Shown here piece by piece: positions 23,539-40,724 of a stretch of DNA of 51,095 nt. A program made the position numbers and the translations under genes. Origin of the DNA: Ectothiorhodospiraceae bacterium (GTDB lineage Bacteria; Bacteroidota; Ignavibacteria; SZUA-365; GCA-2699105); NCBI GenBank assembly GCA_002699105.1, contig PABJ01000026.1:1-51095 (forward strand), read 5' to 3'. Under the pieces are notes generated by a model, which saw nothing but the letters and a program-made list of their open reading frames with translations, did not search any database and had not been told where the DNA came from. Within the stretch, counting starts at the first letter, position 1, and the number at the start of each line of letters is the position of its first letter.

Positions 23539-23570
23539 TTGACAATGATGAAAATTCGGGCGTACATTTG
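23539..23570 (+). promoter_or_regulatory. Promoter candidate for the downstream operon
   Basis: TTGACA (23539-44), an 18-nt spacer, then TACATT (23563-68). The -10 region also reads TAcaTTTG, the Bacteroidetes-type -7 box. It would give a leader of about 185 nt. Confidence 0.35.
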
Positions 23571-23760: not shown

Positions 23761-24600
23761 ATGAAAAATATCCTCATTGTCCTATCCGAATACGGCTTTT
23801 GGGGCGAAGAGCTGGTCGGACCGCTGGAAGTGCTGGAGGAGCGCGGATACAAGTGCGACTTCATGACACCGAACGGTGTGCGGCCGCGCGCCCTGCCCGT
23901 CAGCATGGATACGACATTTAACGATCCTCCGCTCGATCGCTGCGTGACCAACGAATACTACGCGCAGAAAACCAAAGAGATCGACGAGTCCGACCGCCTC
24001 AAGAATCCCATCAGTCTTGCCGGCTGGTTCCCCGAGCGTCCGTACTTCAGCGCACAGAACTACCTGCGCGAACTCGAGAAGTACAACGATGCAGTGGACG
24101 CCGCACAGGCAGAGCTCGAAAAGTACGATGCGCTTCTGCTCGTCGGCGGAAGCGGCCCGATTGTGGATATGGTCAATAACCAGCGTCTCCACGATGTGAT
24201 CCTCGGCTTCTACAAGATGAACAAGCCCATCGCTGCCGAGTGCTACGGCGTTACCTGCCTCGCATTTGCCCGCGACTGGTACACCCGCGAAAGCATCATC
24301 GCAGGAAAGCATGTCACAGGCCATCCGCTCGAATACGACTACCACGACGGTACCGGGTTCTTCGACGCAGCGAAGGGCGACTGGGTCGATTTCAACATGG
24401 GACCACCCCCGTATCCGCTGGAGCACATCCTCCGCGATGCCACGAAGCCGGGTGGCGCATATCACAGCGGCGTGGGCCGGAAGATCAGCGCGCTGGTGGA
24501 CTATCCGTTCATCACGAGCCGTTCGACGGCATCCTCGCGCAAGTGCGGCGAACTCATGGTGGAAGTGCTTGAAAACGGCATGAAATCGTACGGCTGGTAA
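23761..24600 (+). CDS. DJ-1/PfpI-superfamily (class I glutamine amidotransferase-like) protein, long form
   Basis: 279 aa. ..YDALLLVGGSGP...NKPIAAECYGVTCLAFA contains the nucleophile-elbow Cys. An RBS AAGGAG lies upstream. Confidence 0.7.
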   Translation: MKNILIVLSEYGFWGEELVGPLEVLEERGYKCDFMTPNGVRPRALPVSMDTTFNDPPLDRCVTNEYYAQKTKEIDESDRLKNPISLAGWFPERPYFSAQNYLRELEKYNDAVDAAQAELEKYDALLLVGGSGPIVDMVNNQRLHDVILGFYKMNKPIAAECYGVTCLAFARDWYTRESIIAGKHVTGHPLEYDYHDGTGFFDAAKGDWVDFNMGPPPYPLEHILRDATKPGGAYHSGVGRKISALVDYPFITSRSTASSRKCGELMVEVLENGMKSYGW

Positions 24601-24633
24601 TAGACCGCCGCACGAACGACGTCTGAACGATTC

Positions 24634-24668
24634 CGGCGGGAGCCCCGCGCTCCCGCCGATTTTCTCTC
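24634..24668 (+). terminator. Intrinsic terminator or attenuator after the first DJ-1 gene
   Basis: CGGCGGGAGC cccgc GCTCCCGCCG is a 10-bp stem followed by ATTTTCTCTCT. Confidence 0.6.
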
Positions 24669-24709
24669 TCAACGAGTCTGTTACATAACAATTCGCACCA
24701 AGGAGCGAC

Positions 24710-26416
24710 ATGGCCGGTAAAACTGGACGCTACGCTATTATCGAACAATTCCTCGCCGACGGCATTACGCACATGTTCGGCAATCCGGGAACGGTGGAGC
24801 AGGGTTTTCTGGATACCATCAAGGATTACCCTGAAATGAAATACATCCTCACACTGCAGGAAACCATTGCAGTGGCGATCGGGGATGGATACGCGCGTTC
24901 TACCAAGCAGCCCACAGTCGTGCAGTTGCACTCCGGCGTCGGGCTCGGCAACGGGATCGGGATGATGTACCAGGCCATGCGCGGACACGCGCCCCTCGTC
25001 GTCATCGCCGGCGAGGCGGGCATCCAGTACGATTCCATGGATGCACAGATGGCAGCCGACCTTGTTTCCATGGCGCGCCCGGTCACCAAGTGGTCGACCC
25101 GCGTGGTCGAGAAAGGCTCGCTGCTCCGCGTCCTTCGCCGCGCCATCAAGATGGCCTGCACCGCGCCGATGGGTCCGGTGTTCGTCAGCCTGCCGATGGA
25201 TATCCTTGATGCTGAAATCGAAGAGCCCATCCTCCCGACCACGCGGCCGCACACCACAGTTTCTCCGATGGATACCGACGTGACGGCGATCGCCGACATG
25301 CTGGCCAATTCCCGCAACCCGATGATCATCATGGGCGATGGTATATGCGCATCAGGTGCGCAGGCAGAGCTGGCTGAGGTCGCAGAGCTCGTCGGTGCGG
25401 AAGTCTGGGGCGCGGATAATTCCGAGGTCAACATCCCGCAGGAGCATCCGCTGTACATGGGCAACCTCGGGCATATGTTCGGCAGCCACAGCCAGGAAAT
25501 CACCACCAAGGCCGACGCCGTGCTGATCTGCGGAACCTACGTGTTCCCGGAAGTCTTCCCGGCGATGGATAATGTGTTCGCCAAGGACGCACAGGTGATG
25601 CATATCGATCTCAATGCATACGAGATCGCGAAGAATTTTAACATCGACCTCGGCGTGGTTGCCGATCCGAAGCAGACCCTACTCAAGGTCGCCAACACAT
25701 TGAAGGCCGGACTGAAAGACGACCGGAAGAAACTTGCCGCCGACAGAGTCTCGAAGATCAGCGGTGAAAAGCTTGAGACGCTCAAGCAGTTGAAGGAGCA
25801 CGACGAGTCGGTGAAGAACGATACGCCGATGCATGCAAGCGTGTTCATGAAGGCGCTCAGCGAAAAGCTCGACGACGATGCGATCATCTTCGACGAGGCG
25901 CTGACGAGTTCGCCCGAAATGACGCGCTACATCCCCGCGAACAAGCCCGGCACGTTCTTCCAGACGCGCGGCGGTTCGCTCGGCGTTGGATTCCCCGGCG
26001 CGATCGGGCTGAAGCTGGCGAATCCTGATAAGACGGTCATCGGATTCAGCGGCGATGGCGGCAGCATGTACACCATCCAGGCGATGTGGACGGCTGCGCA
26101 CCACAACGTGCCGGCGAAGTTCGTCGTCTGTAATAACCACAGCTACATGCTGCTCAAGCTGAACATCATGCAGTATTGGAAGGAGCGGGGGATCGACGAG
26201 CATGAGTTCCCTGCATCCTTCACGCTGGACGGGCCATCCATCAACTTTGCCGACCTGGCCGAGAGCATGGGCGTCAAGGCCGTCCGCGTGGAAAAACCGG
26301 AAGAAGTCCCCGCAGCGGTGGAGCAGATGCTCTCGCACGACGGGCCCTTCCTCGTCGATCTCGTTATCACGAACCACGTCCCCGGTTCAAAAATGAATTG
26401 TAAATGCGGTCAGTAA
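24710..26416 (+). CDS. Thiamine-pyrophosphate enzyme (benzoylformate decarboxylase / acetolactate synthase large-subunit family)
   Basis: 568 aa. The N-terminal Pyr domain reads ..DGITHMFGNPGTVEQGF.. The TPP motif is GDGGSMYTIQAMWTAAHHNVPAKFVVCNNHSY. Confidence 0.85.
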   Translation: MAGKTGRYAIIEQFLADGITHMFGNPGTVEQGFLDTIKDYPEMKYILTLQETIAVAIGDGYARSTKQPTVVQLHSGVGLGNGIGMMYQAMRGHAPLVVIAGEAGIQYDSMDAQMAADLVSMARPVTKWSTRVVEKGSLLRVLRRAIKMACTAPMGPVFVSLPMDILDAEIEEPILPTTRPHTTVSPMDTDVTAIADMLANSRNPMIIMGDGICASGAQAELAEVAELVGAEVWGADNSEVNIPQEHPLYMGNLGHMFGSHSQEITTKADAVLICGTYVFPEVFPAMDNVFAKDAQVMHIDLNAYEIAKNFNIDLGVVADPKQTLLKVANTLKAGLKDDRKKLAADRVSKISGEKLETLKQLKEHDESVKNDTPMHASVFMKALSEKLDDDAIIFDEALTSSPEMTRYIPANKPGTFFQTRGGSLGVGFPGAIGLKLANPDKTVIGFSGDGGSMYTIQAMWTAAHHNVPAKFVVCNNHSYMLLKLNIMQYWKERGIDEHEFPASFTLDGPSINFADLAESMGVKAVRVEKPEEVPAAVEQMLSHDGPFLVDLVITNHVPGSKMNCKCGQ

Positions 26417-26438
26417 TCCAGGAAAGGGAAGTACGCAA

Positions 26439-27293
26439 ATGATATTACTTGTAGGCGCTTCGGGAAATGTAGGAAAAGAAGTACTCCGCCAGTTAAGCGC
26501 AAGCGGCAGAGACCTCCGTGCCACAGTGCGCGATGAAAGCAAGGCTGCCGACATGCGCAATGCAGGCGCCGAGCCTGTCGTTGCAGATATGAGCGACCCG
26601 GCATCGCTGGGCAAGGCGCTGGAAGGCGTCGAGGCAGTGTTCGTATCCACCACCGCCACACCGACGATGACCGACGACCAGATTAACCTCGTCAACGCAG
26701 CGAAGGCTGCGGGCGTGAAGCGGTTCGTCAAGCTCTCGGTCGCAAAGGCAGACCAGGAAGGCTGCATTTACGCAAGGTGGCATCACCCGGTTGAGAAGGC
26801 CATCATGGATTCCGGCATGAGCTATACCATCCTGCGCCCGAACGGGTTCATGCAGAACTTCATCATGAATGCCGGCACGATCCAGTCCGATAGCGCCATC
26901 TATGCGCCGGTCGGCGAAGGCAAGGTCAGCTTCGTGGATATCCGCGATGTCGCCGAGGTTGCAGCGAAGGCGCTCACCGAAGCATCGCACGAAAACACCG
27001 TGTACGAACTCACCGGACCTGCCGCACTGAGTCACGGCGAGATTGCATCCATCATCGGCAAGGCAATCGGCAAGGATGTGAACTACGTCCCGATCAGCGA
27101 CGAGCAGGCGCACGAAGTATTCATGAGCTGGGGCATCGGCCAATGGTTCGCCGACGCGCTGCTTGATCTCTTCGTGTTCTACCGCGGCAACAACATGGAT
27201 CACGTTGCAGACGACTTCACGAAGGTGACCGGGCATAAGCCGCGGTCGATGGAGACGTTTGCGAACGATTTCGCCGCCGCGTTCAAAGGCTGA
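26439..27293 (+). CDS. NmrA-family NAD(P)-binding protein
   Basis: 284 aa with a Rossmann N-terminus MILLVGASGNVGKEVLRQL. The length and motifs are NmrA/atypical-SDR-like. Confidence 0.8.
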   Translation: MILLVGASGNVGKEVLRQLSASGRDLRATVRDESKAADMRNAGAEPVVADMSDPASLGKALEGVEAVFVSTTATPTMTDDQINLVNAAKAAGVKRFVKLSVAKADQEGCIYARWHHPVEKAIMDSGMSYTILRPNGFMQNFIMNAGTIQSDSAIYAPVGEGKVSFVDIRDVAEVAAKALTEASHENTVYELTGPAALSHGEIASIIGKAIGKDVNYVPISDEQAHEVFMSWGIGQWFADALLDLFVFYRGNNMDHVADDFTKVTGHKPRSMETFANDFAAAFKG

Positions 27294-27341
27294 AAGCAGA
27301 ATTTCAAACAGTAACATTTCATCGAAGATAGAGGAGTCACT

Positions 27342-27785
27342 ATGAGCGATCTCGCTCCACTCACACAGGAAGAAGTCAAAAATATGGCCGTCGAATGGTA
27401 CAAGAAGCTCGACGTGCATGCGCCGATGGTCGAGATTCTGCCGATGCTCAACGACGGCGATCTCGAGATGGTGTTCCCCGAGGCCACGCTGCACGGCCTG
27501 GCAGCATTTGAAGGCTGGTACCAGGGCGTTATCCGGATTTTCTTCGACGAAGAACACGAAGTCACCGAATGCGCAGTCGCCGTGAACGGCACTGTCGCCG
27601 AAGTGAAGATCGTGGTGCGCTGGGCAGCCAGCCGCTGGAATCCGCCCGCACGCTACAGCGACCGCATCGTGCTTGATGCATACCAGACCTGGACGGTAAA
27701 GCGCCACGAGAAGACGGGGCTGCCGGTCGTGACCAAGTACACGGTCGATAGGCTCGAATACCAGGAAGGCTCCGCGAAGCTCTAA
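27342..27785 (+). CDS. NTF2/SnoaL-like fold protein
   Basis: 147 aa. The size and secondary-structure-type pattern (..VEWYKKLD......EVKIVVRW...LDAYQTWTVKR) are typical of NTF2-like cone-fold proteins. Confidence 0.55.
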   Translation: MSDLAPLTQEEVKNMAVEWYKKLDVHAPMVEILPMLNDGDLEMVFPEATLHGLAAFEGWYQGVIRIFFDEEHEVTECAVAVNGTVAEVKIVVRWAASRWNPPARYSDRIVLDAYQTWTVKRHEKTGLPVVTKYTVDRLEYQEGSAKL

Positions 27786-27831
27786 GCGGCAACGATACAA
27801 CGATATTTATCCCAACTCATAAGGAAGAACT

Positions 27832-28698
27832 ATGTCTGCTGCAAATATCCGTACCGCCCGCAGGTACTTCAAAGAGATCATGAATCTCAACAACCGCGAG
27901 ACCATGAACGAAATCCTGGCTCCGGACTTTGTGTTCACGCTCCCCACGCATCCCGATCCGTACCGCGGCCCGGACGGGTTCTCCGAACTCGTCGGCATGC
28001 TCCACGGCTGCTTCCCGGATTTCTACATGCACGTCCACGATATGGTAGCCAACGGCGATACGGTTGTCGCGCGCTGGCGCGGCGGCGGCACCCATGAAGG
28101 CGTGCCCTTGCACACCATCCAGGGCGATCTGCCCGCAAACGGCCGTTCCTTCGAGATCGACGGGATGAGCTGGATGCAGTTCAAGGACGGCAAGATCGTG
28201 GAAGTGAAAGGCAACGAGGACACCGTCGGTCTGCTGATGCAGCTCGGCCACATCCCGGCACCGGACCAGCCGGCGCAGCCTTCCGGCGATGAGCTTATTG
28301 CCGTCACACACCGCTACTTCGAAGAAGTCATGAGCGGCGGCAAGCTGGACGTAATTCCCGAGATCATGGACGAAAATGTGCAGTTCATCATCCCGACGCA
28401 GCCCGAGCCGTTCCGCGGCCACGAAGGACTGACGGGATTCGTGGGCTATCTGCGAAGCGCTTTCCCGGACATCAAGTTCGAGGTCGAGCGCGAAGTCGCA
28501 TCCGGCAACAAGGTCGCCAGCCGCTGGCACATCACCGGAACGCACGAAGGCGAATTCCTCGGCGCACCGCCGACGGGCAACAAGATCTCGGACTACGGCG
28601 TGGATATCTTCACGTTCAAGGGCAACAAGATCCTGACGATCCATGTGAACGAGAACGACTTCGGTCTGATGCAGCAATTGGGGATGATCCCCTCGTAA
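27832..28698 (+). CDS. Tandem (2x) SnoaL-type 'ester cyclase' protein
   Basis: 288 aa. Both halves carry the pattern ..RYF.E(I/V)M......E(I)(L/M).....F..P..P.P(Y/F)RG.(D/E)G......L...FPD.......(M/E)VA.G(D/N).VA.RW...GTHEG...G......... The first half ends in LLMQLG and the second in LMQQLG. Confidence 0.75.
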   Translation: MSAANIRTARRYFKEIMNLNNRETMNEILAPDFVFTLPTHPDPYRGPDGFSELVGMLHGCFPDFYMHVHDMVANGDTVVARWRGGGTHEGVPLHTIQGDLPANGRSFEIDGMSWMQFKDGKIVEVKGNEDTVGLLMQLGHIPAPDQPAQPSGDELIAVTHRYFEEVMSGGKLDVIPEIMDENVQFIIPTQPEPFRGHEGLTGFVGYLRSAFPDIKFEVEREVASGNKVASRWHITGTHEGEFLGAPPTGNKISDYGVDIFTFKGNKILTIHVNENDFGLMQQLGMIPS

Positions 28699-28816
28699 CG
28701 CTTTCTGCGATAGCCGTCCCGCATCGGCGGGGCGGCGCATCGCACGCTTTCGGCCAAGTTCCCTGCGCGTGTCCCGAGCCTATCATGCGCGTTTCAAGAG
28801 TCATCGAAATACCTAC

Positions 28817-30337
28817 ATGAACATAGACTTTCACATAGCATCCCGGCTGCGCAGTTTCACATCGGCAGTGATGTGCGCAGCGTTTCTGCTGTCTTCTACC
28901 GCCTTCGCCGAGCGCCCCGACCCGGCCAACGACGAGAGTACCCACGAAGCGGATACCGTCGCCGTTGCACCGCAGCCGCAGGCCGAAGGCAAGCCGAAGA
29001 TGTCCCGCGCGGTCAATATCCACTGCCTGCGCGCATTCAAAAAGCCGACCTTTCTCCCGCAAGGCGACCAGGACGATCTCTGGGAACGCGACTTCCTCAC
29101 CGGATGGTGGGGCGGCGTGCGCAGCGATCTGTGGGATAACGGAATCGAGTTCGTTGCTGCAATGATCTGGGAAACCTACAACAACGTTGGCGGAGTGAAC
29201 CAGGGATTTTTCGGCGGCGGCGATCCGAAGACGGGCTGGGCGCAGTTCAGCATCCTCATCGCCAGCTTCGATATCCAGACCGGCGAAGCCGGACTCTGGC
29301 ACGGCGGTATGATCCACTTGACGACCGCAATGACGAACGGCGAGAGCATGGCGTATGAATTCGCCGGCAATCTCAACCCGAACTACTACTACGATAATTC
29401 GTTCGCCGACTACTTCAAGGTCTTCGAGATGTTCTACGAGCAGAAGATCCTCGAAGATAAGTTCGCGATCCGGTTCGGGCAGATATACCCGTACGTGCTG
29501 ATAGGCGCATGCCCCACGGGCTGCGCGCTGATGAACGGCTCGTTCCATTACCCGACCTACATCGGATCGAGCCTGTTCCGCACCTCCGACGGCAGGGCAT
29601 ACGGCCAGGGCCTCGGCCCGGCATTCATTGCCGCGCCGCTTGGGCTTCACCTCCGCTACGATCCCAGCCGCGCATGGCGCGCGATCCTGCAGGTCAACGA
29701 CGGTCACGTCGATCCGAGCGGCGGGCGCTTCCTCGATAACGAGCACGGCCTGAATCCCGTCATCAAGGACGAGGAAGGCTACGAGATCATCGGGCATCTG
29801 AGCCACAACACGAACACGCGCCCCGAAGACGAAGGTCTGCCGGGCACCTACACCGTCGGTTTCCAGGCGCATACCGGAACCTTCGGGCACAAGTTCGCGA
29901 CCGAAAGCGGCGAGCCCGTCCTCGTGGACGGCAACCACATGTTCTTCGCCATCGGCGAGCAGAAGATCTTCGAAGGCCAGGCAAAGGTGAAGGAGATTTC
30001 CGTATTCGGCAAGCTGATGGTGGCGCCGGGAGATATCAACCTGGTGACATCGAACACCGCCCTCGGCATCAGCGCCAAGGGCTTCCTGTTCGGCAGGTCG
30101 AAGGACTACCTGACGGTGGGGTATTCGCGGACGGAGTTCGGCGATGCCTACGTGCAGGCAGTTGCAAGCGGCGGCGGCCGTGTCGTCCCCGAGCAGGTCA
30201 TCGAAGCGACCTACTCCGCGTACTTCTCGCCCTGGCTGCTTCTCCGGCCCGGTATCCAATGGGTGATGAACCCGTTCGGCAACGACATCGGTGAAGATCC
30301 GTTCATCATCGGAATGAGCACACGAATTTCGCTATAA
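28817..30337 (+). CDS. OprB-family (carbohydrate-selective) porin
   Basis: I chose ATG 28817, which gives MNIDFHIASRLRSFTSAVMCAAFLLSSTAFAE. DLWERDFLTGWWGGVRSDLWDNGIEFVAAMIWE matches the OprB N-terminal motif as I remember it (LTGDWGG.R..L...G). Confidence 0.7.
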   Translation: MNIDFHIASRLRSFTSAVMCAAFLLSSTAFAERPDPANDESTHEADTVAVAPQPQAEGKPKMSRAVNIHCLRAFKKPTFLPQGDQDDLWERDFLTGWWGGVRSDLWDNGIEFVAAMIWETYNNVGGVNQGFFGGGDPKTGWAQFSILIASFDIQTGEAGLWHGGMIHLTTAMTNGESMAYEFAGNLNPNYYYDNSFADYFKVFEMFYEQKILEDKFAIRFGQIYPYVLIGACPTGCALMNGSFHYPTYIGSSLFRTSDGRAYGQGLGPAFIAAPLGLHLRYDPSRAWRAILQVNDGHVDPSGGRFLDNEHGLNPVIKDEEGYEIIGHLSHNTNTRPEDEGLPGTYTVGFQAHTGTFGHKFATESGEPVLVDGNHMFFAIGEQKIFEGQAKVKEISVFGKLMVAPGDINLVTSNTALGISAKGFLFGRSKDYLTVGYSRTEFGDAYVQAVASGGGRVVPEQVIEATYSAYFSPWLLLRPGIQWVMNPFGNDIGEDPFIIGMSTRISL

Positions 30338-30386
30338 CATGAGCTTCAAACATTTACACATTTCATCACTTTTATCGGAGTTACAC

Positions 30387-30947
30387 ATGAAGAAGCAATT
30401 CGCACTGTTAGCGTTTGCATTCGTTATCGCATTCACCGGCTGCCAGCAGCAGGATCAGGAAGCGATGAAGATGAAAGAGCAGGAGGAAGCGAATAAAGCC
30501 GCTGCCACCCGCTTGTTCGAAACCGCCTGGAACACCGGCGATTTCACCGTGATCGACGAACTTATCCCCGCCGATGCGAACGACCATGCAAGCCTGCCGG
30601 GCAAGGAGCCTGAGAAGGGTCCGGAAAGCTTCAAGAAAATCATCGGTATGTTCCGCGGCGCCATGCCTGATACCAAGATGACGATCCTCGATGAATTCGC
30701 AGAAGGCGATAAGGTCGTTCACCGCTGGTTCATCGAAGGCACGCACACCGGCGATCCGCTCTTCGGCGTTCCGCCCTCCGGCAACCCCGTGCGCTTCGGC
30801 GGCATCACGATCGTCCGCATTGAAGACGGCATGGTCATGGACCGCTGGTCGCAGGTCGATCAGTTGGCGATTCTCCAGCAGCTCGGCCTCGTTCCGCCGA
30901 TGGGTCCGCCGCCGGCAGAAGACGGTGCAGAGGACGCAGAAGGTTAA
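30387..30947 (+). CDS. Lipoprotein form of a SnoaL-type ester cyclase
   Basis: I chose ATG 30387, which gives MKKQFALLAFAFVIAFTGC with a lipobox. The domain reads ..ATRLFETAWNTGDF...GAMPDTKMTILDEFAEGDKVVHRWFIEGTHTGDPLFGVPPSGNPV...LAILQQLG. Confidence 0.75.
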   Translation: MKKQFALLAFAFVIAFTGCQQQDQEAMKMKEQEEANKAAATRLFETAWNTGDFTVIDELIPADANDHASLPGKEPEKGPESFKKIIGMFRGAMPDTKMTILDEFAEGDKVVHRWFIEGTHTGDPLFGVPPSGNPVRFGGITIVRIEDGMVMDRWSQVDQLAILQQLGLVPPMGPPPAEDGAEDAEG

Positions 30948-30990
30948 TCAGCGGTATTCGAATCACATTTAGCACAAGGAAGGTAGAGGC

Positions 30991-31821
30991 ATGAGCCACG
31001 CTCCCGACACCACCCTCGGAAACATGTACAAGGAACACATCGGCTTCATCAAGGCGAAGAACGTCGAGGGCATACTCAACCAGTACGCCGAAGACGCGCT
31101 CCTTATCGGAACGCTGACGCCCGACAGGAAGCCGGTGTACATCCGCGGACGCGATCAGCTCCGGGAATTCTTCACGAACAACTTCATGAACCTCAAGGAT
31201 CTCAACGTCGATCTCACCCAATGGGCCGAAGATAAAGACCGCTTGATGATCGTCGAGGAAGTGGAGGTTATCGGCGCGGACGATTCCAAAGCGAACATGC
31301 GCTTTTACGATAACTGGTTCCTGAAGGACGGACAGATCAAGATTCACTTTGCGGGCGTTGTGCGCTACCCCGACGGCACCTATGCCGACGGCACGGGCTT
31401 CCCGGAAGGCGAAGCGCCGCCGAAATCCGAGCCGCCCGACTCTCCGCTCGGCAATCTCTACAAGGAACACATCGGCTTCATCCATGAAAAGAACGTCGAA
31501 GGCATCCTCAACCAGTACGACGAAAACGCCCTGCTTATCGGTACGCTGACAGAGGGCAGGAAGCCGCGCTTCGTGCGCGGACGCGACGAACTGCGCGAGT
31601 TCTTCAACGGCAACTTCATGGGGCTGAAAGACCTCGATACGAAAATCGATCAGTGGGCGGAGACCGAAAACACGCTCATGATGGTCGAGAGCATCGACCT
31701 TGAGACGATCGACGGGCAGAAGATCAACACGAGCTTCTACGATAACTGGGTGCTCGAAAACGGCAAGATCATCATGCATTACGCCGGAGTGGTGCGCTAC
31801 CCCGACGGCAGCTACGCATAA
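30991..31821 (+). CDS. Tandem (2x) NTF2/SnoaL-like protein
   Basis: 276 aa. Both halves begin LGN(M/L)YKEHIGFI..KNVEGILNQY.E.ALLIGTLT and end AGVVRYPDG(T/S)YA. Confidence 0.65.
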   Translation: MSHAPDTTLGNMYKEHIGFIKAKNVEGILNQYAEDALLIGTLTPDRKPVYIRGRDQLREFFTNNFMNLKDLNVDLTQWAEDKDRLMIVEEVEVIGADDSKANMRFYDNWFLKDGQIKIHFAGVVRYPDGTYADGTGFPEGEAPPKSEPPDSPLGNLYKEHIGFIHEKNVEGILNQYDENALLIGTLTEGRKPRFVRGRDELREFFNGNFMGLKDLDTKIDQWAETENTLMMVESIDLETIDGQKINTSFYDNWVLENGKIIMHYAGVVRYPDGSYA

Positions 31822-31922
31822 TTCGGCAAGCGGTTACGGCGCGCACTGCGCGCCGCCGCTTCCAGCCGGATCGATGACCGACACAGACGACGAACGAATT
31901 CTTTCAAACAGGAGCGAATACA

Positions 31923-33446
31923 GTGCATCATCATTTTGATTATATCATCGTCGGCGGCGGATCGGCAGGGTGTATCCTCGCAGCACGGTTAAGCGAGGAC
32001 CCGAACGTGAACGTCCTTCTGCTCGAAGCCGGCGGAACGGAGATCCCTGAAACAGTAGAAAATCCCGCTACATGGTATATGACCTGGGGCGGCGATATCG
32101 ATTGGAACTACCAGACAGTACCGCAGCCCGGCCTCGACGGGCGGCAGACATTCGAACCGCGCGGCAAGATTATCGGCGGAAGTTCCTGCCTCAACCTGAT
32201 GATGTACATCCGGGGCAGCCAGGAAGACTACGATAACTGGGCATACAACGGCGCACCCGGCTGGGGCTACGACGACATGCTCCCGTTCTTCCAGCGCGTG
32301 GAAAACCAGGACGACGATTCCAGTCCGTGGGCGGGGCACCAGGGTCCTTTCGCCGTGAACACCGCGGCAGCGAACCCGAACCCGACCTCCGCGGCATTTA
32401 TCGACGCCTGCCTCGAACTCGGCTACCCATGGACGGACGATGTCAACGGCCCGCAGATGGAAGGCGTGAGTTGGCACCACATCAACGTGAAGAACGGCAA
32501 GCGCGACAGCCTCGCGACATCGTACCTCTTCCCGGTACTCAAGCGCCCCAATCTCACGCTCGAATCGCAGGCGCATGCGATGAACCTCATCTTCGACGGC
32601 AAACGCTGCGTCGGAGTGAAGTACAGCCAGAACTTCGAGGAGAAGGAAGTGCGCTGCAACCGCGAGGTTATCGTCGCCGCAGGCGCGATGGGTTCGCCGC
32701 AATTGCTCATGCTCTCCGGCGTCGGCAATCCTGAGCACCTGAAGGAGCACGGCATCCATGTGCACCACGAACTGCCGGGCGTCGGCGAGAACTTCCACAA
32801 CCACGTCCTGACGGGCGTGACGTACGAATGCGGTCCGCAGGTTCCGCCCCCGACGCAGAATATGAGCGAGGCCGTGATGTACACGACGTCGTTCCCCGGT
32901 TGGGTCGGCCCCGATCTTCAGATTGCGTTCGTGCATGCATCGTTCGATATCATCATCGGGCAGGCGCACCCGAACTCCATCAGCATTGTGCCCGGTCTCA
33001 CGCGGCCGATGTCGCGCGGCTGGGTCCGCCTGAACAGCAGCGATCCGTTCGATAAGCCGCTGATCAATCCGAACTACCTCGCAGTGAAGGCCGATCTCGA
33101 CCGGCTTATCCGCGCAATCGAGATTGCGCGCGAGATATTCGGCTCCGAGGCAATGAGCGACTGGGTGACCCAGGAACTCCTCCCCGGACCGGACAAGAAA
33201 ACTTACGAGCAGCTCGCTGCCTACGTGAAGTCCAAAGCGGATAGCTACCACCACCAGTGCGGTTCCTGCAAGATGGGACTCGACGATATGGCAGTGGTCG
33301 ATCCCGAGCTTCGCGTACATGGCGTGGACGGGCTCCGCGTTATCGACGCCAGCATTATGCCGACCGTGACGTCGGGCAATATCCATGCTGCCGTCCTCGC
33401 AATCGCAGAAAAAGGCGCGCATCTCATCAAAACCGCCAACAGTTAA
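31923..33446 (+). CDS. GMC-family FAD oxidoreductase (choline-dehydrogenase-like)
   Basis: The GTG start lies behind AGGAG. Motifs are [42 protein letters not shown] and the C-terminal [10 protein letters not shown]...RVIDASIMP. Confidence 0.9.
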
Positions 33447-33469
33447 CAGTAGTACGAAAGGGGGCCTTT

Positions 33470-33865
33470 ATGGCTGCCGCAATTGACATTGTAAAAGAGG
33501 CATACCAGGCATTCATGCGAAACGATATGGAAGGATTACTCGGGCAGATGTCCGGCGATATCGTCTGGCATGGGCACTTCCTCGGCGGTATTCCGATGAA
33601 CGGCACCTACCGCGGCAAGGACGGCGTCAAGCTCTGGCTCGGCAACCTGCGGGAGAGCATCGAGATGCTTGAATTCACGCCGGATACCTATCTGGGCGAT
33701 GAAGAAACCGTAGCCGTCACCGGAAGCGGACGCGCACGGGTCCGGCAGACGGCCGCGGAATACGAAAACGCCTGGGTCCACGTCTACAAGGTCAAAGACG
33801 GCAAGATTGTCTCCGGCGAACTATTTAACGATGTGCAGTCGATGAAGACCGCATTCAAACTTTAG
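33470..33865 (+). CDS. NTF2/SnoaL-like (ketosteroid-isomerase-like) protein
   Basis: I chose ATG 33470 behind AAGGGGG. The product is 131 aa and reads ..VKEAYQAFMRNDMEGLLGQMSGDIVWH...NAWVHVYKVKDGKIV.. It is a paralog of the next gene. Confidence 0.65.
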   Translation: MAAAIDIVKEAYQAFMRNDMEGLLGQMSGDIVWHGHFLGGIPMNGTYRGKDGVKLWLGNLRESIEMLEFTPDTYLGDEETVAVTGSGRARVRQTAAEYENAWVHVYKVKDGKIVSGELFNDVQSMKTAFKL

Positions 33866-33925
33866 GCATGCAGCCGCGGCAGGAGCTGCGGCTGTCACCT
33901 TTGCACCAAAGGAAAGGATGAGTCG

Positions 33926-34324
33926 ATGGCAACACCGCTCGAAACCGTTCAAAAAATGTATCAGGCATTCGGCACCGGCGATATGGAAACGTTCTTCGGC
34001 TATTTGCACGAGGACGTCGTCTGGGAATCGCGGTACCCTGAAGGCGTGCCGCTCGGCGGTTCGTTCCAGGGCCATACCGGCGTCGGCGAATTCCTCGGCA
34101 AGCTCGGAACCGTGCTCGAGATGCACGACTTCGCGCCCGTGAAGATGATCGGCGATGACGATACCGTCTTCAGCGCAGGCTACGAGGTTGTGACGCCGAA
34201 ATCGACAGGCAAGCAGTACCGCAACGAATGGGTGCACATGTTTTCGTTCAAGGACGGCAAGGTGACGCGCGTGCAGACGAGCAACGATGCCGCCGCTGCC
34301 GAGCAAGCGTTCAAGAGCGAATAA
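33926..34324 (+). CDS. NTF2/SnoaL-like (ketosteroid-isomerase-like) protein
   Basis: 132 aa, reading ..VQKMYQAFGTGDMETFFGYLHEDVVWE...NEWVHMFSFKDGKVTRV.. Confidence 0.65.
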   Translation: MATPLETVQKMYQAFGTGDMETFFGYLHEDVVWESRYPEGVPLGGSFQGHTGVGEFLGKLGTVLEMHDFAPVKMIGDDDTVFSAGYEVVTPKSTGKQYRNEWVHMFSFKDGKVTRVQTSNDAAAAEQAFKSE

Positions 34325-34382
34325 CCGGATAGCGAAACACGCAGATATACAAATCATCCGATAGAGAAGGACTTACATAGAT

Positions 34383-34955
34383 ATGGGCTTAGAAGGCAAA
34401 AAGGTCGCGATCCTGATGGAAGGCGACTACTACGAACCGGAAATATTCTATTACCAGCGCCGCTTTCTGGAGGAAGGCATCGACGCGCATTTCATGACGC
34501 GGCTCTGGGGCCAGCCGTCCCTCGAATTTCAGGGGCACGAATACAAGATTCCCTTCCACGTCGACAAGACGTTCGAAGGTATGTCCGACGATGACCTGCG
34601 CAGCTACAGCGCCGTGATCGTCCCGTCGGGCATGGTCTCCGACAGGCTGCGCTACACCGAAGACGTGAACCAGCTCCCGCCGGCGACAGAATTCCTCAAG
34701 CGCGCGTTCGCAGAGAAGAGTGTGCTGAAGGGCATTATCTGCCACGGGATGTGGCTCGTCGCTCCGGCGCCCGAGCTCGTGCGCGGCAGACCCGTCGTAG
34801 TGCATAACAACCTCCACGGCGACGCTGTGAACATGGGCGCGATCTACACGGATCAGGACGTCGTTGTGGACGACGATCTTGTCACCGGCCGCAGCGGCGG
34901 ACATTGCCATCTCTTCGCCCGCAAGATTATTGACATGATGTACGAGAGGGGGTAG
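34383..34955 (+). CDS. DJ-1/PfpI-family protein
   Basis: 190 aa. ..KKVAILMEGDY...YSAVIVPSG...LKGIICHGMWLVA.. contains the PfpI-type ICHG nucleophile elbow. Confidence 0.75.
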   Translation: MGLEGKKVAILMEGDYYEPEIFYYQRRFLEEGIDAHFMTRLWGQPSLEFQGHEYKIPFHVDKTFEGMSDDDLRSYSAVIVPSGMVSDRLRYTEDVNQLPPATEFLKRAFAEKSVLKGIICHGMWLVAPAPELVRGRPVVVHNNLHGDAVNMGAIYTDQDVVVDDDLVTGRSGGHCHLFARKIIDMMYERG

Positions 34956-34957
34956 CA

Positions 34958-35386
34958 ATGGGTAATCTGGTATTTCATCACATGGCAATCGCATGCAAGG
35001 ATCAGGATACGATCGAACGCTGGTACTGCAAGTACTTCGGCTTCGAGCGCGCACGCCTGATCGATCTCGGCGAGGAGAAGATCGTCTTCATCAAGAACGG
35101 CGATGCATATTTGGAACTCTTCGCCGCAAAGGAAGACCGGCCGTACCCCAGCCCCGTCGCCGACGGCGTGTGGTTCCCCGACTGGCGCCACATCGCATTC
35201 AAGGTCGATGACATCGATGCGAAGATCGCGGAGATGGGCGACGATGCGAACATCACGCAGGGTCCGATGGACTTCAGCGGCTTTATCCCCGGCTGGAAGA
35301 CCGTCTGGGTCGCCGATCCCGAAGGCAATATCGTGGAGATCAGCCAGGGCTACGTGGATCAGGATAATCCTCCTCCGCTCGACTAG
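34958..35386 (+). CDS. VOC / glyoxalase-bleomycin-resistance-fold protein
   Basis: 142 aa. ..FHHMAIACKD...YLELF...WRHIAFKVDDID...VADPEGNIVEI.. The start is 2 nt after the previous stop. Confidence 0.8.
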   Translation: MGNLVFHHMAIACKDQDTIERWYCKYFGFERARLIDLGEEKIVFIKNGDAYLELFAAKEDRPYPSPVADGVWFPDWRHIAFKVDDIDAKIAEMGDDANITQGPMDFSGFIPGWKTVWVADPEGNIVEISQGYVDQDNPPPLD

Positions 35387-35481
35387 CCTTCAGCCGGAGG
35401 GCTGCGCACAGCAGCCGGAAACATGGAGCATACAAGACATCATAACAATTAACATACAATCTCGACCCAGGAGGTATTTCT

Positions 35482-37308
35482 GTGAATCAATTTAACTTCA
35501 CGTTCTCCGATACCATCGGAGGATACGCAACATCGAATGTTGCCGACGACGGCACGTTTACCATGAAGACGTCCGACGGACGTGAATACAAAGTCAGGTT
35601 GAAAGGGAATTCGTACGCCCAAATGATTCGCAACCTGGGCGAACCGTACCACGACTGTACGGGCCAAATGCGCAGCATGATCGAACCGGACCGCCACTTG
35701 TACGTCTACGGGATTTTCTACCCGGAGGCCGGCGACGCCACGTTCGAAGCACAGTTTCTCCTCTTCGACGGACGCCGCACAGGCGAATTCGTCTTCGAAC
35801 GCCAGGACTGGTGGATTAACCAGATTCGGCAGCTCGGCGATTTCTACCTGAACGCGCAGTTCGGCGATCAGCCGGTGGACTACCGCAACTACCGCACGAC
35901 GATCTCGCTCACCGGCGAGCGCCCGCGCGATCACTTCCGTCAGGAAACAGATACGATCTCGCGCCTCGTGTACGGTTTCGCATCGGCATTCCTTCTCACC
36001 GGCGACGACCGCTACCTGGAGGGCGCCGAAAAGGGTACCGAGTACCTGCGCGATCACATGCGCTTCTACGATCTCGACGAAAACATTATCTACTGGTACC
36101 ACGGTATCGACGTACACGGTCAGCGCGAGGACAAGGTGTTCGCATCGGAGTTCGGCGACGACTTTAACGCTATTCCAGCATACGAGCAGATCTACGCCCT
36201 CGCCGGTCCTATCCAGACCTACCGCATCACCGGCGATCCCCGCATCCTGCAGGACGCAGAAATGACGGTGGATCTGTTCGATAAGTACTATCTCGATAAG
36301 GAAAAAGGCGGGTACTTCTCGCACCTCGATCCCATCACGCTCGATCCGCGCAGCGATGCGCTCGGCGAAAACAAGGGCAAGAAGAACTGGAACTCCGTCG
36401 GCGATCACGCTCCGGCATATCTGATCAACCTTTATCTCGCTACCGAGGACGAACGCTACGCGAAGTTCCTTGAGTACACGTTCGATACCATCGCGAAGTA
36501 CTTCCCCGACTACGACGAGAGTCCGTTTGTGCAGGAGAAGTTCTTCGAGGATTGGAGCCACGACCGCACCCACATGTGGCAGCAGAACCGCGGCGTTGTC
36601 GGGCATAACCTGAAGATCGCCTGGAACCTCATGCGCATGTACGGTCTTGAAACCAAGCCTGAGTACGAAGAGCTCGCCCGGAAGATCGCAGAGGTTATGC
36701 CGATGATCGGCGGCGACCGCCAGCGCCACGGCTGGTACGACGTCATGGAACGCGCCAAGCAGGACGGCGAAGACTGGTACCGGTATGCCTTCCATGATCG
36801 TAAGGCATGGTGGCAGCAGGAGCAGGGTATCCTCGCATACCTGATTCTCTGCGGCGTCCTCGGCGACGACGAATACCGCCGTATCGCGCGCGAGTCCTCA
36901 TCGTTCTACAACGCCTTCTTCCTCGATCACGACGACGGCGCGGTGTTCTTCAACGTGCTGGCAAACGGTATCCCGTATCTCATGGGCACCGAGCGCTTCA
37001 AGGGCAGCCACTCGATGAGCGGGTACCATTCGTTCGAACTCTGCTACCTCGCGCAGATATACACGAACCTCCTCATCACGAAACGTCCGCTGGATCTGTG
37101 GTTCAAGCCGCATCCGGGCGGGTTCTCGAACGGCAAGCTGTACGTCAGTCCGGACATCCTGCCGAAGGGCGCGATCAAGATTACCGAAGTCTGGATGGAC
37201 GAAGATCCGTACACGGCGTTCGACGCCGATGGGCTCACCGTCGATATCCCGGACGACGGCAAGCATCACAAATTCCAGGTCCGTGTGGCACCAGTCGACG
37301 CGAAATAA
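35482..37308 (+). CDS. N-acylglucosamine 2-epimerase (AGE) superfamily, (alpha/alpha)6-barrel protein with N- and C-terminal extensions
   Basis: 608 aa with a GTG start behind AGGAGG. ..ISRLVYGFASAFLLTGDDRYLEGAEKGTEYL...YEQIYALAGPIQTYRITGD...GDHAPAYLINLY...VVGHNLKIAWNLMRMY is the AGE/cellobiose-epimerase-like repeat pattern. Confidence 0.65.
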   Translation: MNQFNFTFSDTIGGYATSNVADDGTFTMKTSDGREYKVRLKGNSYAQMIRNLGEPYHDCTGQMRSMIEPDRHLYVYGIFYPEAGDATFEAQFLLFDGRRTGEFVFERQDWWINQIRQLGDFYLNAQFGDQPVDYRNYRTTISLTGERPRDHFRQETDTISRLVYGFASAFLLTGDDRYLEGAEKGTEYLRDHMRFYDLDENIIYWYHGIDVHGQREDKVFASEFGDDFNAIPAYEQIYALAGPIQTYRITGDPRILQDAEMTVDLFDKYYLDKEKGGYFSHLDPITLDPRSDALGENKGKKNWNSVGDHAPAYLINLYLATEDERYAKFLEYTFDTIAKYFPDYDESPFVQEKFFEDWSHDRTHMWQQNRGVVGHNLKIAWNLMRMYGLETKPEYEELARKIAEVMPMIGGDRQRHGWYDVMERAKQDGEDWYRYAFHDRKAWWQQEQGILAYLILCGVLGDDEYRRIARESSSFYNAFFLDHDDGAVFFNVLANGIPYLMGTERFKGSHSMSGYHSFELCYLAQIYTNLLITKRPLDLWFKPHPGGFSNGKLYVSPDILPKGAIKITEVWMDEDPYTAFDADGLTVDIPDDGKHHKFQVRVAPVDAK

Positions 37309-37323
37309 AACCAAGAAGGAATC

Positions 37324-37659
37324 ATGGAAGTTAACGTAACTACACAGGGTGATGTCACGATCGTCGATCTCTCCGGAGACATCGACGGCCGGACATCGCC
37401 CCAGGCGCAGTCGGTCATCTCGGCAAATCTGAGCGACGGCGTCAAACTGCTATTGAACATGACCCAGGTACCATATATGTCCAGCGCAGGCCTGCGGATG
37501 CTGCTGCTCGTCTACCGGCAGATCATCGCGAAGCAGGGCAAGGTTGTCCTTGTCGGGCTATCGGAAGATCTGCAGGACACGATGGCCGCCACCGGCTTTC
37601 TGGATCATTTCGATACGTTTGGCACTGTCGAAGACGGCATCACTCACTTAAACGCCTAG
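37324..37659 (+). CDS. STAS-domain anti-sigma-factor antagonist (SpoIIAA/RsbV-like)
   Basis: 111 aa. ..DVTIVDLSGDIDG...LLLNMTQVPYMSSAGLRMLL contains the conserved phospho-Ser context. Confidence 0.85.
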   Translation: MEVNVTTQGDVTIVDLSGDIDGRTSPQAQSVISANLSDGVKLLLNMTQVPYMSSAGLRMLLLVYRQIIAKQGKVVLVGLSEDLQDTMAATGFLDHFDTFGTVEDGITHLNA

Positions 37660-37670
37660 AGGACTGACTG

Positions 37671-39851: not shown

Positions 39852-39892
39852 GAACTACTATACAACAAGTTTGAGTCAGAAGGAGAACGTAC

Positions 39893-40210
39893 ATGGCGTT
39901 TGAAGCACATTTGGAAATGGACGGGCAGGTTGCAAAGATCTTCCTCAAGGGGCAGCTCGATGCGAACGCTGCGCCCGAATTCAGAGACGAAGTGGAAAAA
40001 GCCGCAGGCAACAACCCGACCCGCCTCGCATTGATGCTCCACGATTTGGAGTATATCGCCAGCGCGGGGATTCGCGTCCTGATCTTCGCAAAGCAGAAGA
40101 TGGGCGGCGGCGTGGATGTTGTCGCCGTATCGCCGCAGGAGCAGATCGTCGAAACACTGGAAATGACCGGCCTGACCCACAGCATCGAGATTATCGAGAC
40201 GCTCGACTAA
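39893..40210 (+). CDS. STAS-domain anti-sigma-factor antagonist, second copy
   Basis: 105 aa. ..VAKIFLKGQLDA...LMLHDLEYIASAGIRVLI contains the conserved Ser. Confidence 0.8.
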   Translation: MAFEAHLEMDGQVAKIFLKGQLDANAAPEFRDEVEKAAGNNPTRLALMLHDLEYIASAGIRVLIFAKQKMGGGVDVVAVSPQEQIVETLEMTGLTHSIEIIETLD

Positions 40211-40288
40211 CGCAACGCTGATTGCAGGCTAGCCCTACGCATCACGCACGAACGAGAAGTATTACAGACTAACTTTCGGAAGAGCATC

Positions 40289-40699: not shown

Positions 40700-40724
40700 C
40701 AGCCCGTGCATCGCAGATCTTTCG

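Follow-up and report, generated by a model that had tools for sequence, protein, structure and literature searches.

In Synechocystis sp. PCC 6803, a model cyanobacterium, slr1852 to slr1862 form the icfG operon, one salt-repressed operon that includes the epimerase-like Slr1855, Slr1856, GlgX and IcfG (PMC12329169; PMC8670252). Its composition is given as Slr1854 (general stress protein 18, GSP18), Slr1855 (AGE), Slr1856 (STAS), Slr1857 (GlgX), Slr1859 (STAS), Slr1860 (the PP2C phosphatase IcfG) and Slr1861 (kinase/anti-SigC) (PMC12329169; PMC8670252). Slr1861 is the kinase of Slr1856, Slr1859 and Ssr1600 and is also an anti-SigC factor. The icfG cluster is tied to inorganic-carbon and glucose metabolism, with a phenotype of no growth on glucose at low inorganic carbon. 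Slr1854 is induced by solvents (butanol, ethanol), slr1857 rises on nitrogen starvation, and phosphorylation of Slr1856 and Slr1859 peaks early in resuscitation from chlorosis. The cluster was reportedly studied by Beuf in 1994 and by Shi, Bischoff and Kennelly in 1999, and we take GSP18 to be the name of a Bacillus subtilis DJ-1/PfpI-family protein. Here we describe a gene cluster at positions 23761–40699 on the forward strand of a 51,095-nucleotide stretch of DNA, referred to as the window (contig PABJ01000026.1 of assembly GCA_002699105.1, an Ectothiorhodospiraceae bacterium placed by GTDB in the Ignavibacteria). The 3′ part of this cluster is already a known operon type; what is surprising is its breadth and the enzyme battery attached to it.

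The first-pass annotation of the window had described thirteen co-directional genes with short gaps at 23761–35386 as a 12-kb set. All 13 plus-strand open reading frames (ORFs) are present, with gaps of 2–109 nt, but the set does not end at 35386. After 95 nt, the co-directional run continues unbroken into five more plus-strand genes with gaps of 11–78 nt (35482–40699), encoding an AGE-like protein, a STAS protein, GlgX, a second STAS protein and an RsbW-like kinase. The 13 genes are thus the enzyme-rich upstream part, or front two-thirds, of one co-linear cluster of about 17 kb. From the last two of the 13 genes onward, the proteins match the icfG operon in both family and order. They are a DJ-1/PfpI/YhbO-class protein of 190 aa with an ICHG nucleophile elbow (34383–34955; Pfam DJ-1_PfpI, 1e-16), a VOC or glyoxalase-I-like protein (34958–35386; Pfam Glyoxalase, 3e-13), a 608-aa AGE-superfamily protein (35482–37308; Pfam GlcNAc_2-epim, 9e-13), a first STAS anti-sigma-factor antagonist (37324–37659; Pfam STAS, 5e-22; TIGR00377, 88.6 bits vs. 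cut-off 53.45), the glycogen debranching enzyme GlgX (37671–39851; TIGR02100, 651.8 bits vs. cut-off 640.9), a second STAS antagonist (39893–40210; Pfam, with the curated family cut-off reached) and an RsbW/SpoIIAB-like Ser kinase or anti-sigma factor (40289–40699; Pfam HATPase_c_2, 3e-19). The DJ-1, AGE and RsbW-like proteins are the putative counterparts of Slr1854, Slr1855 and Slr1861, respectively. AGE copies on cyanobacterial plasmids of Nostoc, Gloeothece and Gloeocapsopsis, located beside GlgX and DJ-1 genes, share 60–65% identity with the window AGE protein, and the Nostoc C052 plasmid copy is also accompanied by ThiJ-like, thiamine pyrophosphate (TPP) enzyme, small NTF2, tandem NTF2 and VOC genes. 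Judged by family and order, the part from DJ-1 to RsbW is the predicted counterpart of the icfG operon.

Both STAS proteins carry a Ser in SSAG/ASAG phospho-acceptor motifs (YMSSAG in the first, IASAG in the second), and the RsbW-like kinase contains an N-box (EISTNVILHG) and a G-box (GGLGV); its best NCBIfam match is RsbW, below the cut-off. The parts of the switch look functional, with the kinase predicted to act on the STAS Ser residues. GlgX has the intact GH13 catalytic motifs GFRFD, AEAWD and CHDGF and passes the equivalog cut-off. In other genomes, the core additionally includes a PP2C phosphatase and a ParA-like ATPase. A single protein of the Anaerolineae locus L067 combines RsbW, a receiver domain and SpoIIE; next come ParA and a HEAT protein that binds cyclic nucleotides. 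The deltaproteobacterial locus L066 encodes a SpoIIE phosphatase with cyclic-nucleotide-binding and GAF domains. From these two architectures, the switch seems commonly to receive cyclic-nucleotide input. In Deinococcus (L059), Streptomyces (L060), Nostoc NIES-3756 (L058) and Anaerolineae (L067), the cluster ends with a MinD/ParA-family ATPase gene, a possible hint that a granule or protein assembly is being positioned.

A search was performed to retrieve related loci, using the tandem SnoaL-type "ester cyclase" (27832–28698) as the entry and scanning one genome per species. A total of 45 loci were obtained, 28 of them with full 10-kb flanks; this sample is dominated by Cytophagales and taxonomically uneven. 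Failure of the genes to occur together in other genomes had been named in the first-pass annotation as grounds for abandoning the gene set. Among the 28 full-flank loci, the ThiJ-like and GMC genes are each found in 27, and the TPP, 147-aa, DJ-1, VOC and AGE genes each in 26. STAS and GlgX genes were seen wherever the flank was long enough. Accidental adjacency is ruled out by synteny, with the same order in dozens of genomes. As revealed by gene-order strings from tblastn and phmmer, the order ThiJ-like, TPP, (GMC), 147-aa, NTF2s, DJ-1, VOC, AGE, STAS, GlgX, (STAS, RsbW) recurs in Dyadobacter, Runella, Hymenobacter, Nibrella, Chloroflexaceae, Ignavibacteria, Ca. Electronema and a metagenome-assembled genome (MAG) labelled Ectothiorhodospiraceae. 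The cluster ranges over Cytophagales, Chloroflexota, Ignavibacteria, Desulfobulbales, Deinococcus, Streptomyces, Alpha- and Gammaproteobacteria and cyanobacteria, with at least eight phyla represented.

Several members are strongly conserved. The ThiJ-like protein is 55–81% identical in 41 of the 45 loci, where its gene lies directly upstream of the TPP gene; the 147-aa protein (37–71% identity) was found in 39 loci, the GMC gene (35–44% identity) in 41 and the VOC gene in 32. The tandem cyclase has 387 detected homologues and is 56–79% identical across phyla, with a mean column identity of 75% in 19 sequences picked from the top matches; the three homologue neighbourhoods examined first contain the same neighbours. 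Across phyla, the DJ-1 protein is 66–77% and GlgX 65–71% identical. The locus scan gave a median of six NTF2 genes per locus, so that the saturation with NTF2-fold proteins remarked upon in the window is a conserved property. Among named genomes, the closest is a MAG labelled uncultured Ectothiorhodospiraceae, sharing 66–83% protein identity for most cluster genes and a lower identity for the NmrA, porin and single SnoaL_2 proteins, with the same upstream LtrA and AlgE-type porin genes. Contigs identical to the window are found in Tara Oceans and other marine metagenome assemblies.

The AGE protein has more than 4800 homologues (counted as sequence clusters). Among the matches listed, the best (72–83% identical) include proteins of Chloroflexota, Ignavibacteriae and Deltaproteobacteria. 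A search of plasmids with the AGE protein retrieved 23 plasmid records; with this entry, plasmid copies were found in seven genera (Deinococcus, Streptomyces, Runella, Gemmobacter, Nostoc, Gloeothece and Gloeocapsopsis), and chromosomal copies in Anaerolineae and a deltaproteobacterium. The Deinococcus plasmid (L059) carries the full set together with a SpoIIE phosphatase and ParA. The Streptomyces plasmid (L060) encodes ThiJ-like, TPP, DJ-1, AGE, STAS, GlgX, STAS, RsbW, SpoIIE and ParA proteins, then GlgE and GlgB. On the Runella rosea plasmid, glycogen synthase is followed by ThiJ-like, TPP, GMC, eight NTF2-type, DJ-1, VOC, AGE, STAS, GlgX, STAS and RsbW genes. The Nostoc C052 plasmid (L064) has, besides the ThiJ-like, TPP, small-protein, NTF2, tandem NTF2 and VOC genes, those for an aquaporin, glucose 1-dehydrogenase, glucosidase, GlgX, AGE and LtrA. 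In the Anaerolineae locus L067, an enzyme module (167–7464) and an AGE-STAS-GlgX-STAS module (10001–17196) are arranged divergently around a BTAD/guanylate-cyclase gene, and a three-subunit molybdenum hydroxylase of the aldehyde-oxidase type occupies the GMC slot. Because copies reside on plasmids in seven genera and the AGE, GlgX and DJ-1 proteins show cross-phylum identities of 60–77%, which in our judgement is higher than expected for vertical inheritance, these data suggest that the whole island moves horizontally.

The comparison also shows that the cluster is modular. The core consists of DJ-1/PfpI, (VOC), the 608-aa AGE-type protein, STAS, GlgX, STAS and the RsbW-like kinase. A second module pairs the ThiJ-like protein with the TPP enzyme, which resembles benzoylformate decarboxylase (BFDC). 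A third comprises the small NTF2-like protein, the highly conserved tandem SnoaL-type protein, further single NTF2 proteins and the GMC (elsewhere molybdenum) oxidoreductase. An OprB porin, a lipoprotein cyclase and an NmrA-like reductase form a lineage-specific layer. In the window, the upstream modules begin with the ThiJ-like protein (23761–24600), a class-I glutamine-amidotransferase-fold protein of 279 aa (Pfam ThiJ_like/DJ-1, 1e-19) with a Cys in AECYG at the elbow position. It is followed by the 568-aa TPP enzyme (24710–26416; Pfam TPP_enzyme N/M/C) and the NmrA-like NAD(P)-binding protein (26439–27293; Pfam NmrA, 2e-37), a sporadic accessory that, among the loci examined, has homologues in just L006, L013 and the Nostoc NIES-3756 plasmid. 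As initially annotated, the TPP, NmrA, GMC, two DJ-1, VOC and OprB genes were each recognized by Pfam, and none of the 13 genes reaches a curated equivalog cut-off in NCBIfam. The statement that no described pathway has this composition thus holds for the upstream enzymes and fails for DJ-1, VOC and the continuation, which are of the icfG operon type. Literature searches on combinations of the family names returned no description of the enzyme set beyond the Synechocystis operon papers, which assign no function to the enzymes and do not mention the ThiJ-like/TPP/NTF2 module.

The TPP enzyme is most similar to BFDC, both among NCBIfam families (336 bits vs. cut-off 493) and among PDB matches (E 6e-71). 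It shares the three-domain fold of benzoylformate decarboxylase (MdlC). The Glu that activates the cofactor, the counterpart of His70 and the GDG...NN motif are all retained; the counterpart of His281 is missing. Its gene has neither a mandelate racemase nor a dehydrogenase gene as neighbor, and the cluster TPP enzyme is always paired with the ThiJ-like protein, whereas BFDC is not. On these scores, the missing His281 equivalent and the lack of pathway neighbors, membership in the benzoylformate decarboxylase/mandelate pathway was rejected. A broader form of this idea would be catabolism of an external aromatic, quinone or phenolic compound, which would enter through a porin, meet a periplasmic lipoprotein cyclase and then undergo GMC oxidation, mandelate-pathway-like TPP decarboxylation and ring chemistry by NTF2 and VOC proteins. 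In addition to the BFDC affinity, the OprB- and AlgE-type porins and the exported cyclase in the window fit such a route, as do exported NTF2 proteins in L044 and L008 and the muconolactone-isomerase, carboxymuconolactone-decarboxylase and EthD family genes in some cluster versions. However, most versions are wholly cytosolic, the porin is nearly confined to the window's lineage, and the cluster contains no conserved ring-cleaving dioxygenase, CoA-ligase/thiolase funnel, inner-membrane transporter or catabolic regulator. The tight universal link is to GlgX, AGE and STAS genes rather than to aromatic-pathway genes, and the BFDC-type features are incomplete as described above. We regard aromatic catabolism as quite unlikely.

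The porin distribution itself was determined in the loci examined. The OprB-family porin (28769–30337; Pfam OprB, 1e-35), with a signal peptide ending ...STAFA/ER and a gene start at 28817 in the ENA gene call, is a lineage-specific insertion: homologues with 42–51% identity occur in one of the 45 genome loci and in one close metagenomic relative (L006, L013). It is a local addition and not a defining part of the gene set. Homologues of the second porin, an Alginate_exp-type (AlgE-type) outer-membrane protein with a signal peptide (21896–23206; Pfam Alginate_exp, 4e-33), were found only in L006 and L013; its start (436 aa) agrees with the gene call on identical ENA contigs. The lipoprotein SnoaL-type cyclase (30387–30947; Pfam SnoaL, 2e-32) is an exported paralogue. 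Of the two possible starts of its ORF (30339/30387), the internal one at 30387 yields a lipoprotein-type leader (…FAFVIAFTGC), with MKKQFALLAFAFVIAFTGC and the plausible lipobox AFTGC. Its homologues have lipoprotein signals in L006 and L044, but those of Cytophagales and Chloroflexaceae are cytosolic. Ignavibacteria and one other lineage also have exported NTF2 proteins. OprB, NmrA and the AlgE-type porin all count among the sporadic or lineage-specific additions. The first-pass annotation had deduced uptake and periplasmic processing of an external substrate from the porin and the lipoprotein; since the cyclases of Cytophagales and Chloroflexaceae have no signal peptide, this may apply at most as a lineage-specific extension.

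Eight NTF2/SnoaL domains in six genes had been counted in the 13-gene region. Seven were confirmed by Pfam, and the eighth, in the 147-aa conserved protein (27342–27785), gave weak matches. Its best Pfam E-value, 0.013, is not significant alone; across the family, weak SnoaL_2 matches were obtained for nine and SnoaL_4 matches for three of 14 members (best 9e-6). The only PDB match of the family profile is a de novo NTF2 (E 0.018), and hhalign against the single SnoaL_2 proteins gave E 0.034, both weak. The 147-aa protein is probably NTF2-like. The other members are the tandem cyclase, the most conserved of them (two SnoaL stretches, 3e-56), the lipoprotein cyclase, a tandem SnoaL_2 protein (30991–31821; two stretches, 8e-20) and two single SnoaL_2 proteins (33470–33865, 1e-15; 33926–34324, 1e-16). 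Homologues of the tandem SnoaL_2 protein are present in L006 and L013 (74–75% identity), on the Nostoc C052 plasmid (352 bits) and in some Hymenobacter.

The AlphaFold2 (AF2) model of the tandem cyclase (predicted local distance difference test score, pLDDT, 89) shows two NTF2 domains (cones), and the best two-domain structural matches are Lsd19 and MonBI/BII; it also resembles single-domain SnoaL-type proteins. The protein has the same fold as SnoaL/AknH, Lsd19 and MonBI-MonBII but shares only 12–32% identity with them in the structural matches listed, has no polyketide synthase (PKS) context, and belongs to a family much more conserved and widespread than is usual for natural-product tailoring enzymes. 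No PKS domains were detected among the scanned window ORFs, and the cyclase scores obtained, 51 and 34 bits, compare with a cut-off of 200 for the NCBIfam SnoaL methyl-ester-cyclase. These matches bear on the possibility that the cluster makes a small molecule (protectant, pigment or signal) from a glycogen sugar, with the TPP enzyme as carboligase and the NTF2 proteins as cyclases. SnoaL-type and Lsd19/MonB-type tandem NTF2 enzymes are natural-product cyclases. TPP enzymes of this superfamily also catalyze carboligation. A TPP gene of Gloeothece, weakly related and located about 6 kb upstream of the core, adjoins KAS-III-like and methyltransferase genes, and sugar-nucleotide genes are adjacent in Streptomyces and Gemmobacter. 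Against biosynthesis stand the low methyl-ester-cyclase score, the absence from the cluster of any conserved PKS, acyl carrier protein, nonribosomal peptide synthetase, glycosyltransferase or exporter, and the lack of a carrier with a known product. We consider such a biosynthetic role decidedly improbable.

The icfG link to inorganic-carbon/glucose coordination and SigC signalling raises another reading of the NTF2 proteins, namely that some resemble metal-free iota-carbonic anhydrases, which are tandem NTF2-like, and serve the decarboxylase or a carbon-sensing switch. An iota-carbonic anhydrase does appear among the structural matches of the tandem cyclase, at rank 22, and the Dyadobacter cluster has an LCIB-type carbonic anhydrase and a bestrophin beside it. 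Yet the Foldseek match reflects the NTF2 fold in general (TM 0.2–0.3), no sequence-level match was obtained, Pfam assigns SnoaL/SnoaL_2 and not a CaMKII_AD-type family, and the cluster is common in heterotrophs. With a generic fold match only, iota-carbonic-anhydrase identity was rejected for the NTF2 proteins, and an inorganic-carbon function of this kind appears extremely improbable. The Dyadobacter frigoris genes (L011, 3059–9412) lie on the opposite strand directly upstream of the cluster and adjoin KefB-like and flavodoxin-like genes; this carbonic-anhydrase neighbor is possibly relevant to the inorganic-carbon link of icfG.

The remaining enzymes were compared with characterized families in the same way. 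In NCBIfam, the DJ-1-fold proteins of the window score 19 against a cut-off of 365 for HchA and 67 against 139 for PfpI; for the DJ-1 protein at 34383, a PDB match to PfpI (4e-15) aligns the Cys and His. The VOC protein is closest to the glyoxalase-I-like YaeR (38 vs. cut-off 140). The GMC flavoprotein oxidoreductase (31923–33446; Pfam GMC N and C), predicted to be cytosolic as it has no signal peptide, is choline-dehydrogenase-like (PRK02106, 521 vs. 605 bits; TIGR01810, 475 vs. 732). With scores below the cut-offs and no BetB or BetI neighbors, assignment to BetA and the betaine pathway was discarded. The AGE protein matches Pfam GlcNAc_2-epim with 48.6 bits (cut-off 23.4) and falls below the cellobiose 2-epimerase equivalog (30 vs. 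cut-off 800). Its AF2 model comprises an (alpha/alpha)6 barrel to which a beta domain is added at either end (predicted TM score 0.77, mean pLDDT 67). Foldseek matched this model best to glucose 2-epimerase, cellobiose 2-epimerase, mannose isomerase and YihS (probability 1.00, target TM 0.55–0.67). By model and profile, the AGE protein is a predicted member of the AGE superfamily of sugar 2-epimerases/isomerases. The three glyoxalase/deglycase-type folds (ThiJ-like, PfpI-type and VOC), the TPP enzyme of the 2-oxo-acid decarboxylase/carboligase type and the molybdenum aldehyde-oxidase-type substitute for GMC are hints of carbonyl chemistry. In the first-pass annotation, carbonyl, quinone or aromatic chemistry had been suggested; carbonyl chemistry is a reasonable guess, and the universal link to GlgX points away from plant phenolics. 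Glycogen-related genes also flank the cluster in other genomes, including glycogen synthase in Runella, GlgE and GlgB in Streptomyces, and a sugar nucleotidyltransferase in some; the glucosidase and glucose 1-dehydrogenase genes within the Nostoc C052 cluster are a further hint of this link. Since GlgX occurs everywhere and glycogen-synthesis genes in some versions, the chemistry is more likely to concern endogenous, sugar-derived compounds than plant phenolics.

We tentatively favor the view, at somewhat less than even probability, that the cluster is a switch-controlled module for glycogen mobilisation and reactive-carbonyl processing. Its structural components are near certain, while its chemistry is doubtful. 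For the window organism, we infer the regulation, all substrates and one shared family of sugar-derived carbonyl compounds along the following lines. A Ser-phosphorylation partner switch, in which the RsbW kinase acts on the two STAS proteins, would turn the unit on in carbon or stress transitions, with the phosphatase presumably encoded elsewhere in the genome. GlgX would debranch stored glycogen, and the AGE enzyme would epimerise or isomerise the released reducing sugars. The ThiJ-like, TPP, flavin, NTF2, DJ-1 and VOC enzymes may convert or remove sugar-derived 2-oxo-aldehydes, alpha-dicarbonyls and 2-oxo-acids, the NTF2-fold enzymes carrying out isomerase-, cyclase- or dehydratase-type steps and the GMC enzyme serving as an alcohol/aldehyde oxidoreductase. 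In the window's lineage, the exported cyclase and the porin might carry the same chemistry into the periplasm. Genes for cation/proton or K+ channels (LtrA, TMEM175, CPA antiporters, KefB-like) also lie beside the cluster.

The same inventory could instead be a stress regulon in a row, in which independent general-stress proteins share partner-switch control without a common substrate or pathway. General stress regulons typically contain such families, the regulators belong to the RsbV/RsbW type, and membership of the enzyme module differs among lineages; Slr1854, the GSP18/PfpI-type protein, responds to butanol and ethanol, and the SigF regulon of Mycobacterium smegmatis includes VOC, DoxX, muconolactone isomerase and GlgX. 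That regulon consists of similar families in scattered genes and was rejected as a description of the cluster. The gene order here is strongly conserved, the ThiJ-like and TPP genes overlap in several phyla, and the tandem cyclase, AGE and DJ-1 proteins are very highly identical across phyla; the side-by-side expansion of NTF2 genes (again, a median of six) looks more like successive steps on related substrates. We find a mere row of stress genes somewhat unlikely. Another alternative is a route that has gone unrecognized in many phyla, in which glycogen sugars would pass through GlgX/AGE, the ThiJ-like/TPP pair, a flavin or molybdenum oxidoreductase and the NTF2 series to a small molecule or a dicarbonyl-proofing shunt. 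The STAS switch would then perhaps act directly on enzymes, either instead of or in addition to a sigma factor. This too we hold to be unlikely; if true, it would explain in biochemical terms the icfG phenotype, a failure to grow on glucose when inorganic carbon is low.

Several observations weigh against glycogen mobilisation coupled to carbonyl processing. The deltaproteobacterial locus L066 has only AGE-STAS-GlgX-STAS-RsbW-PP2C and L008 has the enzyme module with no AGE or GlgX within 10 kb, so that the halves are separable. Dicarbonyl detoxification leaves unexplained both the six to eight NTF2 domains and the cross-phylum identity of about 60–79% of the tandem cyclase. The porin and the exported cyclase in the window's lineage hint at an external substrate. 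No genes for PP2C/SpoIIE, ParA or a sigma factor were found in the scanned window ORFs, and the SigB/SigF-type promoter pattern (GTTT-N13-18-GGGWA) has a single match across the window, remote from the cluster and fewer than expected by chance. Curated NCBIfam family cut-offs are reached by GlgX and the STAS proteins only; the proposed enzyme roles are read from the families, and putative orthology to the Slr proteins draws on family, order and the cyanobacterial plasmid homologues (AGE, 60–65%).

Three intercistronic hairpins, reported earlier at gene junctions, were all recovered, with folding z-scores of −2.3 to −2.7 relative to shuffled sequence. The one at 24634–24658, between the ThiJ-like and TPP genes, has a 10-bp stem with nine GC pairs and a T-rich tail (ATTTTCTCTC) and is terminator-like, making it a candidate partial terminator or mRNA stabiliser. 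Those at 28713–28736 (10-bp GC stem) and 31828–31861 (GC stem) have no U tract. In L006, a hairpin is likewise located at the ThiJ-like/TPP junction, with a sequence unrelated to that of the window, and in L013 a 14-bp stem of different sequence occupies the junction matching 28713–28736. Being at the same junctions and unrelated in sequence, these hairpins fit signals for attenuation or processing within the operon, not repeats. In most genomes, the ThiJ-like gene abuts or overlaps the TPP gene (overlapping in L011, L012 and L063; also L008), and the two are therefore probably translationally coupled there. In the window and in L006, a close relative, a gap of about 100 nt that holds the strong hairpin separates them, an arrangement that may uncouple their expression levels in this lineage. 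A sigma-70-like promoter match (TTGACA-18-TACATT, 10/12) lies upstream of the first gene at 23539–23568 on the plus strand; it is a consensus match only, and the regional count of such matches does not exceed shuffle expectation. Directly 3′ of the last gene, a hairpin with a 9-bp GC stem and a UUCG loop (40724–40745, plus strand) likely marks the end of the transcription unit. No riboswitches (including the TPP riboswitch), other RNA families or tRNAs were found in the search.

Upstream of the cluster, the LtrA-family membrane protein gene (20364–21557, plus strand; Pfam LtrA, 7e-90) and the AlgE-type porin gene are loose accessories. The LtrA gene is a recurrent neighbor outside the core, lying beside the cluster in five unrelated lineages: the window, L013, Ca. 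Electronema (L014), the Deinococcus plasmid (L059) and the Nostoc C052 plasmid (L064, 44% identity to the window). Other cluster versions have a TMEM175, CPA-type antiporter or KefB-like gene in its place, which suggests a recurrent tie to K+/H+ transport. LtrA was also considered as a relative of the L008 TMEM175 protein; no significant BLASTP similarity was detected and a literature search gave no support. Directly after the cluster, an unrelated Fic/DOC protein gene is located at 40946–42121. At the far left end of the window, 605–1882 has a weak match to a type IX secretion system C-terminal sorting domain (E 8e-4, below the cut-off), which, if genuine, would be hard to reconcile with descent from a gammaproteobacterium. 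An McrB-like AAA_5 GTPase and McrC pair, a restriction system, is encoded at 6623–9777 on the plus strand with a GC content of 43–46%, markedly below the surroundings. Three tandem lipoprotein-like genes with no Pfam match lie on the minus strand at 15515–18873 (361, 365 and 383 aa); the first two products are 66% identical, and the third resembles them only in the leader and the "FQRCSDDTPTEPPP" region.

Known since the 1990s as a carbon-metabolism regulator in a model cyanobacterium, the icfG operon now proves to be a version of a larger, highly conserved and apparently mobile cluster. This cluster spans heterotrophs and phototrophs, with GlgX and AGE-like genes beside DJ-1-type and mostly also TPP/NTF2-type genes. 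Its carriers include Synechocystis, Nostoc, Deinococcus, Streptomyces and Dyadobacter, which can be cultured and are genetically tractable, so the icfG question can be tested in many organisms. The 608-aa AGE proteins, the tandem "ester cyclase" and the ThiJ-like/TPP pair are large, conserved and uncharacterized families, and solving any one of them would lead to the annotation of thousands of genes.

Among known systems, the E. coli glyoxalase/deglycase enzymes GloA, HchA/Hsp31 and YhbO/PfpI have all three of their folds represented in the cluster, with the Cys nucleophile in place (plus the His of the PfpI-type protein), although the window proteins are below all cut-offs and no glutathione-dependent partner GloB is found in the cluster. 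Kef-type systems are part of electrophile defence in E. coli, and the recurrence of ion-channel or antiporter genes beside the cluster is similar. The B. subtilis RsbV/RsbW/RsbU and SpoIIAA/SpoIIAB systems are alike in having STAS proteins with a phosphorylatable Ser, a GHKL-type Ser kinase/anti-sigma factor and, in related clusters, a PP2C phosphatase; stress-type enzymes (PfpI/GSP18, VOC) are likewise grouped with the switch in the sigma-B regulon. Unlike the RsbV/RsbW system, the cluster has no sigma factor gene within it or nearby, the two STAS genes are separated by GlgX, and the proteins fall below the RsbW/SpoIIAA equivalog cut-offs; the switch could have an enzyme, and not a sigma factor, as its output. 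Compared with the Synechocystis icfG operon, which is treated in the papers examined as a regulatory switch only and in which slr1852–slr1855 have no assigned role, the window lacks the PP2C phosphatase IcfG (Slr1860), present in L059, L060, L066 and L067, and adds about 11 kb of enzymes, porin and lipoprotein upstream. Collectively, the cluster is best regarded as a much extended variant of the icfG-type cluster, and the icfG operon is one trimmed version of it.

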